Below, piece by piece: positions 12,938 to 64,000 of a stretch of 64,000 bases of DNA. The stretch is from a virus (lineage: Duplodnaviria > Caudoviricetes). Within the stretch, counting starts at the first letter, position 1. The number at the start of each line of letters is the position of its first letter. The DNA is taken from the IMG/VR virus record IMGVR_UViG_3300021399_000005, positions 102,805-166,804 of that record, one strand, 5' to 3'. The translations under genes were made by a program, and so were the position numbers. Under the pieces are notes generated by a model that saw only the letters and a list, made by a program, of their open reading frames with translations, was not told the DNA's origin and did not search any database.

Positions 12938-15304
12938 TTAACTTCAATAAAAAATGTCTAAAAGGTCATCTTGAACTGAAAGTGGTTGTTGTTCATCTGC
13001 TGCTACATTAGCAATAAACCCTAAAGCATGAGTTCCTCTTTTATCAGACAAACCAGAAATACTCTTTCATGCTCATTGTCCATTAGTAGCTCCTCAAGCG
13101 GCTTCTTTTACAGTTAAACCATTTTTTAAGTCTGTTAAATCTAACAAAAATACCTTTAATGTATGTCTTGTTCTTAGTCTTAAATTAAAAGTATTTCCTT
13201 CTACTGGGAACCACATCGAAACTAAGGCAGGGTCAAAATCAGTATTTTTTGAATTTAGTCTATAATGAAGTGGAACCATTCTTGCGGTAAGTTTATTTTG
13301 TGCGGCGGAACTGGTTTCGTAAGCTACAGAAGCAGGAATTATTGGTTCTGTAACACCATTTCCTGAAGTAGAAGAAGCTTCAATTGTTGATTTTATAATA
13401 TAATCAACACAATTATTAACGTTTGTTTTTAAATTATAAAGACTGTTTGGTCCTAGATGAGGCAAGTGAACAGGGCCAGCCCCAGTAGTTTTAAAGAGAA
13501 TTTCTTTTACATCATCTGTGATAAAGCGACTAACAGAAAGGCTGAAATCTTTTGTCACATAGTATCCGTATGAACCGTGGTTTGGACTGTTGAAATCTCC
13601 AAGAAGTAAATCTCTTGTCTGGTATTGATGTGTAATAGTGTCAAAAGAAAAGCCGAATCTTAAAGGAAGTGGACAAGCATTTTCTTTTTTTGGATTCGGG
13701 CCTTCAAAATGCAAAATTCTATCCAATAAGAAAAATACATTGTTAATTTTACAATAGTAAGAAGAAAAATATTTTCCTTTTAAATTTTGAATATTAATAC
13801 CTCAAGCTTTTGAACCGCAAGAAACAGTAATTGCACCAAATGGAACATAGCTAGCATCTACCCCTTCTTCACAAGGAGTGTAAGAAACAGTTGATCATGG
13901 TGTTTTAGTTCCATCTCTTGTTAAAGCTGCATTTCCACCATCAACAGAAAGATTTTCAATTGAGACAGAAGAAACGTCACATCCTTCATCAAATAAAATA
14001 CAAGAGCCAATAATATTTTTAAAAAACAAAGAAGAAAAATGTAAGTTCTCACTTGGGTCTGTTACATTTGAACTTAATCCACTGGTATCTAGAATCAACT
14101 CTTTACCAAATACTAATGCAGCTTCACGTAATCACTGATCATTTCGGGTACCTTGAGGATATTCTCCAACACGAGAGTCTAAACAATAACCATATTGGAA
14201 TTTTAAACTAGAAAAATACGAATTTACACAAGAGGCCAAACGCAATCCTTCTCTTTGGAATCCTTTAAAAGTTAAGTTTTCAAAATTTCCATTTTTAACC
14301 CTTACAAGAGATAAAAGCGTTTTTAAAGGTGTAGCTTGCGCACTTAGCGGCACACTATCATTAACCAATTCCTCATTAAGGCCACTGGTAAAAGTTAAAT
14401 TTCTTAAACTAATATTTGAAAAATACGCATTTGCAGAACTTTCTAAACTTGAACCAACACCTCAAAGGAATTGGTCATCGTCAGTTTCTTTTTCGTAAGC
14501 AATAACAGTTCCAAGAGTTCTATTGGTAATGTCTAAATTTTGTCCTACTCCTTCGATAGTGATATTTTCTCCATTTAAAATTGTTGGATGGAAATAAAAT
14601 CTGCCGTTTCCGAATTGGAGGGTGATATTACCTTCTGCGCAAACTCTTGACAAAATTTTTGTATTATTCTCTGCTGCGCTACGGTCATTTGCTTTTCCTC
14701 CTAGTTGTAAAAAATTAAGATGGTCATCATGAATTAATACCATACAATTTTCATTTTCTGCTAACTGATGAACAAATATTCCATCAACTACAACATTAGT
14801 AGGGGGAGATACATAATAAATAGCTGAGCCACCATCATTAATATTATACCTGCCTAAAGTAATTATGTAGCTTCCAGCAAGAAGTTCTTTTTCTTTTTCT
14901 TGTGTCACTTCTTCACTACCTGGATTATAAACATTTAAAACTTCTTCAAAAGTAGGGAAAATTTTTACTGCACCAGAAGCCATAGTTTCTAAGGAGCTTT
15001 GAAAGCCTTCTACAGCTCCTTTTAAGCTTTCGAATGTGCTTGATATTTTTTGCATTTGAGTATTTACTATACTAGTAATTTGAATTATATCTACTTTTCC
15101 CTGTTCTTTTAAAGTATATAAAAATAATTGTCCATCATCAATAACAAAAGCAGAATTATTTATTGTTATTGCTTCCTGTTGTACAGCAGTATTGAAAGCT
15201 TCTTTTGATTGAAATAGGACAATTCTATAATCATCTTCTTGAAGGACGGGTTTAAAAGCAAGTTCTTTTCCGTCTATATATATTTTCGAAATACTACCAC
15301 TCAT
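12938..15304 (-). CDS. Tailspike/depolymerase-like beta-helix protein (788 aa, 8 in-frame TGA=Trp)
   Basis: Four ORF-track fragments share one frame, separated only by TGA; ITLGRYNINDGGSAIY, NFLQLGGKAND, LQFGNGRFYF resemble pectate-lyase-3-type spikes; ends TAA. Confidence 0.8.
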
Positions 15305-15365
15305 GATATTTTTTCGTCTCCTTTCTTGTTTTAAACAAATAAAAAAAGAGCAAGAGAGATTAATC

Positions 15366-60499: not shown

Positions 60500-63400
60500 G
60501 TGATGGCAAGTGGAATTATCTACGATGATAATATATCTAAACAAGGCGCAGAGTCCCTTATGGCAGAACGTATAAATGAAAATATTAATCAAGCAATAGA
60601 TATTATCGTTTCAAAAAAACTTGAAGGCTTAGCTTTTGACAAAACAGAAATTTGTTTAATTGAAAAAGCTGACAAAAACACAGAAGAATACACTGTCAAT
60701 AATGGCTCAATTTCATATACAGCAAGAGCAAAAAAAGGCGAATATAAAGAAGGGCAACAAGTTTATGTTCAAATTCCTAATAATGATTATGACAATATAA
60801 AAACTATTACTGGGATTTACGCTGACCCTAGTTTAAATATGGATAATTATTATATAAATATTTTTGACTCTTTTATTGATGCAACAGGAAATATTTTTGA
60901 TAATGAAAATATAATTGATAGTAATGTAAAAAAAGAGATTGCTCCATCTCTTGTTGCGAATTGAGGAGATAGAAAAAAATATATTTTAGGAAATGAAAAT
61001 GATTTTGTAATTTTTAAAAGACCTATTGATTACGATATTTTTGCTTTTTCTTTTGGATTAAATACAAGACTTTATAATGTTACTTCTGGAACTTATGGTA
61101 TAGTAGTTGAATTAAAAATTGGTTCAGATGTTTATAAATTTAAAAAACAAACCAATAGAGAAAATGGTTATTCAGATTTTTCTGGAAATCCTTATGTTTA
61201 TAGTTCATACGTTACGCAACAATTTAAGATGGACATAAGTAGTAATAGAGAGGCCCTTGGGGCAGACAACACAAAAATTTCAAGACCTGTTGAAGGAATT
61301 AGAATTTATGTTTTTCAAGATGATGACTTTGTTACAAAAAATGGAAGACTTGAATATGAAGAAAATGTTACCCCTGCGGCGAACATATTATTCAATAATT
61401 TTCAAATTGATTTTGGTTTTCCTCCTATTGCAGAAGACGGGGTTGTTGATAAAATATATTTATCTACTCCTGATAGTCCATATTACACTAGAACAAATAT
61501 AGATGAAAGCTTTTCCCGTAGAATAAGATTAAATTGAGTCCATATTTTTAATAAAACAGAAGAAGGTGGAACTTCTATTCCAATGGTTTTAAACTCTAAG
61601 GAAGATTTTAATACTTATAGATTAACTGACCATTTGACAAAATTAAGAATTTCTTGATACGAATGAAAAGAAGTGGCTTCTGAAGAAGCGGATAGTAATA
61701 CTGGAAAGTTTTGGAAAAAGCTTTCGTCTATTTATTGAACTGCAATAGAAGATGGGTTATTGGATGAAAATTCTTGACTTACAATAGATGGTGATGTTGA
61801 AGATCCTTTTACCTTTCAGACAACTATAGAACCTAATACAAATAGCGCAACTTATAAAGTTTTTATTGAGTATGGACAGGGTATTTCTTTAGATGGACAA
61901 GAAGAAGATACAAGTCGCATTTCTACAGTTGAAAGCGAAGAAATAACTTTTTATGCAACAGTTCCAAAAAGAGAAGGATTGAGAGCAAAAGACTTAATTG
62001 AAGGCTTGTCTTTAAGTGTTGATGATGGAACAAAAGGACAGTATTATCTTTATGATCAGGCTACAAATCAATTATTTTCATCAATTGAAAAAAGTCGAAT
62101 TAGAAAAATATATGCAGAATATCATCCGGCAGAACAAGAAGAACGGTCAGTAGATTTTCCTATTGGAAGTATGATTTATTGAAAAGTTCCTAAATCAGAT
62201 ACGCAACTAAATTTTCTTCTTTCTCAAGAATCTTGAGAAAAAGATATAGAGAAAAAAGAATTAGAGAAAGTTTTTGGAGAAGAAGATGCCAATTCAGATA
62301 AATATACTTTTTGAAAACAAGAAGTAGTGGAAAAAAAAGTAAAAAAAGTCTATCTTCAATATACTATTAAAGATGAATATGCAAAAACACAAACTGAAAA
62401 TTCAGTAGAGTGTAAATTAATAAATGAAAACGGGGAACAAGTTTGTGGAGGAAGGATGAATTTTTTCTTTAGTTTTTTACCTCCATCAAGGACAATTATT
62501 GACCCCTATTGAGGAGAAACATATATTTTAAAAGTTTCTGGAAATGGAACTTCTAATAGAGGAGAAATTCTTGCTGCTTTAGAAACAAATTTAAAAAATT
62601 CAGAAGCTTTACCAGTTGGTGGGTATCTAGCCTCAGAAGTGAACTATAGATATGCTACAAAAGTTGGTGTAAGAATATATGACTATTCAGGAAATTCTCT
62701 TTTTACAACAGAAGACAAAAGTTTTTCTAATATTAATAAAGTTTTATCTAATGTTACTGTTCAAATGGGGAATATTTATGATAAAGAAATGAATTTTTCT
62801 GTTGTTGGTGGAAGTGCTCCTATTGTTAAAATAGGAGGAAGTAATGAATTAATAACTGATGATAAAGCATATGCAAAAATTGAAGGGCAAACTACAAGTA
62901 CTGATACAGGAACAAATTTAATTTTTTATGACAATGAATTATATTATATTAGTCCTCTTGGTAAAAAAACAGGAGGGCCAGAAGAAGGAACTTCAGCACC
63001 TTGATTATATGCTGGAGATTTAGAAAATACTTGTCCAGAAGTAATAAATTTTAAACTTGAAAGACCAGATGGCGAGAAAGTATCAGCTTCTTTCCCAGTA
63101 CATTTTTTTAGAACTAATTTTGATTTTACCAAAATTAAAACAAAGGGTAATATTATTGATTGTAATTATAATTTGTTAAGTGGTGCAGATTTAGTTGTTT
63201 ATGATGAAAATGGTGCGCTTATGTCTGGAACGTCTAATCCATATGAATTAGGTGTTTCTAATAGTAGTGCATTAGTCACTTGAAAAGTTTTTTATATTAA
63301 AAAAAGTTCTAACTCTACTTATGTAAGTGAAGATGGTAGTAAATATTTTTCTTTTGTTGGAGGATATCTTCAACATAATTCTGAATCTTTGCCAATTGAA

Positions 63401-64000
63401 AGAGCTTTCTATATTGCGGCTTATCTTGGTGGAGGTACTTCAACTCCTTGTTATATAATGCCATTAAGATTAATTCAAAAAAAATATGGCTTATCTTTGT
63501 TAAGTGATTGAAGTGGAGAAAATGTTCCAACTATTTTTGGCGAAAAAACAGACGGAGAGTTCTCAGGAGTTTTTTCTGGATATAACTCAATCCAAAGATA
63601 TTCTGATGGAGAGCTAGTAAAAGAAGATAGCGTAAATAGTAATAAAGAGATAGAAGAAGAATCTGTTTATGGTTTTTATGGTTATCAGAATGGATATTCT
63701 ACTTTTGCTTTACAAAATAAAGACCCTTATTTTACAATAAAGGGATTGGTAAAAGATAATGAAAATAAAATTTCTGGACAGTCAACAATATTCCAGGCTG
63801 GACAAGATTCTTTGTTTTTAAGATCAATGAATTATAAAGCTCCAAGTTCAGAAAATTCATATGATGGAGAAGGTATGGAGATTGATTTAGTTCTTGGAAC
63901 AATAAATTCTCATGAAGTGGACTCTGTTTTATATGCAAAAGAAATTGCAGTTTTAACTCAAATACAAACAAATGAAGGAACAACCATCAATGAAAAAACA
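60500..64000 (+). CDS. Large tail-tip/baseplate protein, partial, many TGA=Trp
   Basis: AAGGAGG SD; fragments 60500, 61229, 61979, 62327 and 62639 share one frame, which is still open at the window end. Confidence 0.78.

Follow-up and report, generated by a model that had tools for sequence, protein, structure and literature searches.

Are two genetic codes in use within one phage genome? This question is raised by a stretch of 64,000 nucleotides (hereafter the window), in which packaging and tail genes of the plus strand are open only when TGA is read as a sense codon, whereas the early genes of the minus strand encode tryptophan with TGG. The window, with coordinates 1–64,000, makes up the final 64 kb of a virus record that consists of one contig (IMGVR_UViG_3300021399_000005; 166,804 bp); genome coordinates are given separately and are named as such. 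According to our analysis, it is quite probable that the phage combines late-biased recoding of TGA to tryptophan with early genes in the standard code, and that its own tRNA(UCA) is the decoder.

The first and the last 127 bp of the record are identical, which implies a circular or permuted genome of 166,677 bp, and the completeness of the record according to CheckV is 100%. The plus-strand genes extend from window position 35500 across the origin to genome position 50,220, and the minus-strand genes occupy genome 50.6–138 kb.

TGA as a Sense Codon in the Late Genes

The following late features are relevant here:

35500..64000, on to genome 50,220, plus strand: late block (packaging, head, tail) with TGA as a sense codon, recognized by its packing under code 4 and by the gene order of Enterococcus phage VRE9_4
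35500..36561, plus strand: first late gene, 3 in-frame TGA; phrog_5767 ("sigma factor" in PHROGs), E = 6e-45
37804..39603, plus strand: large terminase subunit TerL, 2 in-frame TGA (codons 267 and 445); phrog_2, 48% identical to the TerL of Enterococcus phages
39986..41614, plus strand: portal protein, 1 in-frame TGA; phrog_2739, E = 1e-70
42869..45946, plus strand: four head-region genes, 11 TGG and 0 TGA, including the phrog_4088 gene at 43586–44677
46231..47208, plus strand: late gene, 6 in-frame TGA; phrog_31155
51916..60414, plus strand: tape-measure gene of 2832 codons, 21 TGA and 7 TGG; similar in length to the tape measure of VRE9_4, and the two align

The initial annotation, made from the letters of the window, had proposed a comparison of coding density under codes 4 and 11. 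With code 11, the cover by a greedy set of open reading frames (ORFs) was 0.73, and with code 4 it reached 0.89; the entire gain lay within the plus-strand late block (from genome 138.3 kb, over the origin, to 50.2 kb). Under code 4 the late genes are tightly packed and end with TAA or TAG, as had been stated, and the claim that the late fragments join only across TGA was borne out as well: TerL, the portal gene, the tape measure and the tail gene starting at 60500 are single ORFs only by read-through. In total, the late block comprises 48 ORFs and 25,119 codons, with 258 TGA against 119 TGG. The read-through lengths and the gene order agree with those of VRE9_4, a phage that uses the standard code, and it follows that no separate genes have been fused in these ORFs. 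Large terminase, portal and virion proteins are named among them by PHROGs. The "sigma factor" label of the first late gene received no support from Pfam, NCBIfam or the PDB, and an antisense ORF at 47724–48512 was rejected as spurious.

Assembly errors or pseudogene marks could in principle produce in-frame TGA codons, but we found no point that supports such an origin here, and we regard it as exceedingly improbable. The ORFs that hold the 258 in-frame TGA contain no in-frame TAA or TAG, the TGA codons fall at conserved Trp columns (see below), and the same pattern occurs in independent contigs from another sample; in addition, the record is complete.

The use of TGA is graded within the late block. 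The packaging and head genes have 6 TGA against 31 TGG, and in the tail genes TGA makes up about 74%. For the four head-region genes, the absence of TGA among 11 codons has a probability of about 4e-6 by chance at the 68% TGA of the late block.

The two halves of TerL match two separate PHROG families without known function, phrog_15503 and phrog_24618, which may derive from terminase fragments of recoded phages that were annotated in code 11. In the present genome, annotation in code 11 fragments about 80 kb.

Tryptophan as the Meaning of TGA

To TGA the initial annotation had assigned tryptophan, and alignments with relatives agree with this assignment. From eight real late genes we evaluated 17 TGA columns, using 36–52 IMG/VR relatives per alignment whose TerL is 60–68% identical. 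Tryptophan is the majority residue in 13 of these columns and invariant in 9; the other four hold F/Y, S, R and R. In the first late gene, the three columns have W in 44/44, 31/44 and 38/46 relatives. Codon 267 of TerL corresponds to W in all 52 relatives and codon 445 to F, Y or W, while five TGA columns of the gene at 46231..47208 are W in 35–36 of 36 relatives. Glycine was found at none of the 17 columns in these relatives, nor at any TGA column against VRE9_4. Code 25, in which TGA is Gly (phages of Absconditabacteria), was rejected on this account.

The residues of VRE9_4 give a similar picture: the 27 TGA columns hold W 8, F 5, Y 4 and G 0, and the 89 TGG columns hold W 36, F 11 and Y 9, which is much the same spectrum. 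When TGA is counted, the Trp content of the late genes is 1.50%, compared to 1.40% in the early genes; without TGA, the late value is 0.47%. Furthermore, in the contigs of sister strains, 4 of the 6 codon changes at TGA positions are swaps between TGA and TGG. Overall, these comparisons of sequences, together with a phage tRNA that has the anticodon UCA and hallmarks of tRNA-Trp (see below), support the prediction that TGA is read as tryptophan in the late genes.

The Standard Code in the Early Genes and the Nature of Their TGA Ends

The early genes contain 296 TGG in 21,172 codons, and TGA lies inside a demonstrable gene only in four recoded ones, in agreement with the initial observation that Trp-rich early genes use only TGG. 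Long minus-strand genes are also free of TGA: a gene of 644 codons has 14 TGG, and the DNA polymerase (1,279 codons) has 16 TGG.

As stop codons, the 123 code-11 ORFs of the early block use TAA (72), TAG (30) and TGA (21). Six of the 21 TGA-ended ORFs are fragments of recoded genes, and three, one of which precedes the true start of its gene, are short unannotated ORFs that extend by 30–92 codons on read-through; each of the remaining 12 has a TAA or TAG within 0–12 codons. The seven TGA stops named in the initial annotation (at 3582, 12373, 15366, 16885, 29934, 30202 and 32635) all proved to be real. The genes concerned are:

3582..4463, minus strand: S-adenosylmethionine (SAM)-dependent methyltransferase with 6 TGG; ends with TGA in a −35 box, TAA 7 codons on in TATAAT
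12373..12876, minus strand: SprT-like early gene; ends with TGA, TAA 2 codons later
15366..15671, minus strand: early gene ending with TGA; the homologue in the TAG-recoded relative G005 stops at the same column
16885..17646, minus strand: early gene ending with TGA, which overlaps the ATG of the next gene (ATGA)
29934..30420, minus strand: two paralogous small early genes (30202–30420 and 29934–30152) with TGA ends in the −35 boxes of perfect promoters
32635..32817, minus strand: small early ORF, its TGA end embedded in a perfect consensus promoter

Four of these ends (3582, 29934, 30202 and 32635) have a particular geometry: the TGA lies within the −35 hexamer of a 12/12 consensus promoter (TTGACA-17-TATAAT) for the next gene, and the next in-frame TAA lies within the −10 box. 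A spacer of 17 nt brings the stop codons contained in the two boxes, TGA at −35 and TAA at −10, into the same frame. Such promoters are a property of the early region, with 40 of the 65 near-consensus sigma-70-type promoters on its minus strand and almost none in the late block. The 21 perfect sites (TTGACA-N16-18-TATAAT) of the genome include 20 on the minus strand, most of them at about 17000–35500 of the window. We considered that the following stops (11 of 12 within 7 codons) might be selected "backup stops," and this idea was dropped: four are explained by the promoter geometry, and the comparison was biased, long extensions having been removed from one group only. Three ORFs with TGA near their 5′ ends (28145–28456, 31770–32243 and 9692–10237) are start-codon artefacts of the ORF caller and not recoded genes.

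Homologues of the gene at 15366 and of the polymerase stop at the same place. Together with the results on the TGA ends, this indicates that TGA occurs in early genes only where it matters little whether it terminates translation or is read through. The analysis supports the view that the early genes would be translatable by an unmodified cell using the standard code.

The paralogues at 29934–30420 share near-identical last residues, the TGA stop and a downstream promoter, which suggests a repeated cassette of gene plus promoter.

Recoded Genes on the Minus Strand

The distribution of TGA follows the class of the gene and not the strand, as is evident from the recoded genes of the minus strand:

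12938..15304, minus strand: ORF of 788 codons within the early block, 8 in-frame TGA; open only with TGA read-through, and in 4–5 pieces in code 11
1559..2302, minus strand: HNH homing endonuclease, 4 in-frame TGA and 1 TGG; phrog_10822, E = 4e-50
genome 54,888–55,768, minus strand: GIY-YIG intron endonuclease ORF, 3 TGA and 0 TGG, beside a second group I intron hit (22 bits)
minus strand: Holliday-junction resolvase with internal TGA
minus strand: unannotated ORF of 199 codons adjoining the resolvase, 2 TGA

The leftward unit ends with two of these genes, the resolvase and the adjoining ORF. At about 2357, upstream of the HNH gene, there is a sigma-70 promoter that matches the consensus perfectly. 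The ORF at 12938..15304 matched no family in any library searched, and its earlier label of "tailspike" is unconfirmed. A shared late-promoter motif was sought upstream of the recoded genes, and nothing convincing was found.

A tRNA(UCA) Split by a Group I Intron

A tRNA able to read UGA was searched for in the window and in the rest of the genome. The tRNA genes are the following:

762..11322, minus strand: tRNA array of 27 genes for all 20 amino acids, with no UCA anticodon (ARAGORN, Rfam)
843–918, minus strand: tRNA-Phe(GAA) with an unusual T loop, missed at default thresholds
3157..3228, minus strand: tRNA-Trp(CCA) of non-canonical structure (weak acceptor stem, D loop of 4 nt), found with relaxed thresholds only
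7342–8198, minus strand: tRNA-Leu(UAA) with a 771-nt intron after U34 that holds an HNH ORF (7490–8002)
genome 50,252–50,537, plus strand, outside the window: tRNA(UCA), called "tca" by ARAGORN with the intron option

The 27 genes of the array include the three hidden ones listed after it. ARAGORN and Rfam with default settings revealed no UCA tRNA in the window. The whole-genome check proposed in the initial annotation did reveal one, at the position given above. A 211-nt intron splits its anticodon between U34 and C35, which explains why standard tRNA finders miss it. This is the only junction with a U before the 5′ splice site and a G at the intron end. The predicted spliced product is a canonical 75-nt cloverleaf with the anticodon loop CU-UCA-AC and an encoded CCA end, and it carries hallmarks of tRNA-Trp (A1-U72, G5-C68 and G73). 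The insert matches the full Intron_gpI model of Rfam at 40 bits, with E values of 6e-10 genome-wide and 4.7e-9 locally, and the conserved core motifs are present. Scores of 18–20 bits for Intron_gpI were used by Williams (2020, bioRxiv 10.1101/2020.01.27.920355). These features support the assignment of the insert as a group I intron, predicted to be self-splicing.

A sister contig from another sample, 97.8% identical, carries this split gene as well. In the present genome, the gene starts 31 nt past the stop codon of the last late gene and is followed by a strong two-way terminator; just upstream of it, a GC hairpin is found along with a promoter-like site (TTTACA-16-TATCAT, 10/12). Neither GenBank phages nor five relatives yielded a blastn match to the tRNA plus intron. 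A similar host tRNA was looked for in four metagenome-assembled genomes (MAGs), with only T-arm matches; a single 15-nt match to the anticodon arm was no tRNA. A six-frame search of the whole genome for RF-1, PCRF, tryptophanyl-tRNA synthetase (TrpRS) and cytidine-deaminase domains found none of them.

The absence of an encoded release factor and the very unusual D arm and acceptor stem of the phage tRNA-Trp(CCA) would fit another way of decoding, in which tRNA(UCA) is inactive and TGA is read by a tRNA-Trp with the CCA anticodon. This could be the phage tRNA at 3157–3228, acting through its D arm in the manner described by Hirsh, or the tRNA of the host after RF2 has been disabled. We consider this very improbable, as tRNA(UCA) is structurally canonical and conserved in the sister strain. 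Moreover, a similarly odd tRNA-Trp(CCA) exists in the TAG-recoded relative G005, which does not recode TGA, and the odd structure is therefore not tied to TGA recoding. Hirsh-type decoding was set aside once tRNA(UCA) had been verified and the counterpart in G005 had been found. The odd tRNA-Trp(CCA) had no match when IMG/VR was scanned for it.

The tRNA-Leu(UAA) intron of the array has G as its last nucleotide, and its core contains R/S-like motifs; Rfam gave no report for Intron_gpI.

Relatives of the Phage and the Code of the Host

The observed similarities are best explained if the phage belongs to the large siphophages that infect low-GC Bacillota and resembles those of Enterococcus and Geobacillus as well as gut phages of the "Agate" type. 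Its TerL is 47–48% identical to that of Enterococcus phages and 44% identical to that of phAss-1. The hosts of the cultured relatives are Enterococcus, Geobacillus and Bacillus. Relatives binned in MAGs have Bacillota-type labels and are either in the standard code or recoded at TAG.

Members with the standard code, with TAG recoding and with TGA recoding all occur within a TerL identity of 60–68%. In this clade, relative G002 is in the standard code, while in G005 the late genes are recoded at TAG and a tRNA(CUA) is present. Sister phages are thus either in the standard code or show late-biased TAG recoding with a matching suppressor tRNA, and for this reason the comparison of genomes points to a phage-borne recoding strategy in Bacillota hosts that would use the standard code. 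A clade with three code states at such close distance is a good set for studying the origin of recoding. The tRNA(CUA) of G005 (C1:11061–11151) is 91 nt in size and has a long extra arm; its D arm is like that of the tRNA(UCA) described here.

The opposite assignment would be a host in which UGA already means Trp (code 4, as in Mycoplasma), with the whole phage simply in code 4 as well. One of the relatives was binned in a 1-Mb "Tenericutes" MAG, and the TGA-ended early genes would gain only 0–12 residues by read-through, both of which agree with such a host. Nevertheless, a uniform code 4 cannot explain the partition, because the real early genes have 0 TGA against 296 TGG, while 68% of the late Trp codons are TGA. 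The phage also has its own tRNA(UCA), the "Tenericutes"-binned relative is in the standard code in the stretch examined, and the cultured relatives infect the genera named above. Sister phages recode TAG with the same late bias, and a bacterial host in which TAG is a sense codon is not known. A code-4 host is accordingly most improbable.

A Possible Timed Change of Code During Infection

The host presumably uses the standard code, and the code would then change during infection. Early and replication genes avoid sense TGA and are led by consensus promoters of the host type, and they could be translated in an unmodified cell. The genes with TGA where relatives have Trp fall into four classes, namely packaging genes, tail genes, homing endonucleases, and the resolvase with the unannotated ORF beside it. 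The group I intron would have to be spliced out before tRNA(UCA) can work, and the host TrpRS presumably charges this tRNA. Recoded proteins would appear only after the spliced tRNA(UCA) has accumulated, which would help to time the late functions.

It may further be suggested, although we regard this as rather doubtful, that the change of code is gated by RNA, so that intron splicing and the build-up of tRNA(UCA) set the timing of late transcription, virion assembly and the homing endonucleases. The only TGA-reading tRNA that was found has no anticodon until the intron is removed, and the first late gene, sigma-like by its PHROG label, has three TGA. If true, this would be a translational gate upstream of the transcriptional cascade.

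Several observations weigh against late-biased recoding as we interpret it. The TGA ends of the early genes are no proof of termination, with TAA or TAG 0–12 codons on in each, and four of them are by-products of promoter geometry. At the 16885 end, the column corresponds to Trp in the G005 homologue, which runs 9 residues further. The hints on the host are weak, the MAG labels of relatives being Lachnospiraceae, Erysipelotrichaceae, "Tenericutes" and Bacillota. The score of the intron (40 bits) is below the Rfam gathering score of 50 bits, and no convincing P1 helix could be drawn by hand for it. Finally, the promoter-like site upstream of tRNA(UCA) would allow this tRNA to be synthesized as soon as infection begins.

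The same promoter-like site, which lies directly before the gene, favors an explanation without any timed switch. The suppressor would be made and spliced from the beginning of infection, and the recoding would be a tolerated side effect and not a regulator: TGG would drift to TGA under A+T pressure wherever delay or a loss of yield is tolerated, and the genes needed at once or in bulk (early and head genes) would be kept free of TGA by purifying selection. The graded and not all-or-none use of TGA in the late block and the swaps between TGA and TGG in near-identical strains are in line with this explanation. On the other hand, the cut-off is sharp, with no internal TGA beside 296 TGG in the early genes that are shown to be real. 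The homing endonucleases, too, lie amid early genes and have early-type promoters, yet they are rich in TGA, which fits blocked translation. In addition, a significant bias of recoding to lysis and structural genes has been published (Borges et al., bioRxiv 10.1101/2021.08.26.457843). Drift without a switch is thus a possible explanation, though not the one that we favor; late-biased recoding with tRNA(UCA) as decoder is retained as the preferred reading.

Comparison With Known Recoded Phages

Recoding of TGA to Trp in late genes, which the initial annotation had called known, is established for phages of standard-code hosts. The phage studied here is a further example of this published phenomenon, with the intron-split suppressor as the only less ordinary detail, and nothing in it alters the current picture of late-gene recoding.

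The closest likeness is to the "Agate" phages, TGA-recoded phages of Firmicutes with genomes of 154 ± 27 kb, in which TGA is Trp in structural and lysis genes and the replication genes are standard (Borges et al., bioRxiv 10.1101/2021.08.26.457843). Shared features are the large genome, the split use of TGA as Trp, and the existence of close relatives in the standard code or recoded at TAG. In both cases, an early gene houses a group I intron endonuclease with a preference for TGA over TGG (here the GIY-YIG ORF with 3 TGA), and neither a release factor nor TrpRS is encoded here, as is usual in Agate phages. The likeness rests on genome size, the host phylum of the relatives and the recoding pattern. 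Of the TGA-recoded genomes surveyed by Borges et al. (bioRxiv 10.1101/2021.08.26.457843), only 35% had a suppressor tRNA that could be detected, and the presence of non-canonical tRNAs was suspected. Unlike in that account, the suppressor is present here but split by a group I intron, a case absent from the preprint.

Late-gene recoding of stop codons is also found in crAss-like (Zeta/Beta) and Lak phages (Yutin et al., 2021, PMC7886860; Devoto et al., 2019, PMC6784885), some recoded genomes of which lack a detectable suppressor (PMC7886860; PMC6784885). The hosts of these phages are Bacteroidota, and their virion genes are unrelated to those of the present phage. Introns in tRNA genes of Lak phages were reported without classification and were not linked to a suppressor (Devoto et al., 2019, PMC6784885). 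The virion module of phAss-1 is related to the one described here, and its group mixes recoded and standard-code members and has no dedicated aminoacyl-tRNA synthetase. However, phAss-1 recodes TAG to Gln with three intact tRNA(CUA) genes, whereas the present phage recodes TGA to Trp with one intron-split tRNA(UCA).

Group I introns are known from anticodon loops of bacterial and plastid tRNAs, for instance the "Leu.3Ug" type in tRNA-Leu(UAA) (Williams, 2020, bioRxiv 10.1101/2020.01.27.920355). The intron of tRNA(UCA) shares with this type the insertion after U34, the U at position −1, the omega G and a core recognized by Intron_gpI, and the tRNA-Leu(UAA) of the phage is split at the same site as Leu.3Ug. 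The difference is that the intron described here interrupts a phage gene for an opal suppressor; the Williams preprint (bioRxiv 10.1101/2020.01.27.920355) mentions neither Trp, nor suppressor tRNAs, nor phages. A group I intron in a phage suppressor tRNA is described in none of the Agate, Lak and Williams accounts. Published surveys found a suppressor tRNA in only 35–40% of recoded phages, and an intron in the anticodon loop offers a concrete reason for suppressors that escape detection.

Other RNA-Related Features of the Window

A transfer-messenger RNA was recognized by Rfam on the minus strand at window 35–339, with 64.7 bits (gathering score 47) and no call by ARAGORN. Inside the tRNA array, the minus strand carries an RNA-repair set (window 3582–5697 and 10424–10921) that consists of an RtcB ligase, the SAM-dependent methyltransferase and a HAD_SAK_2 domain protein.

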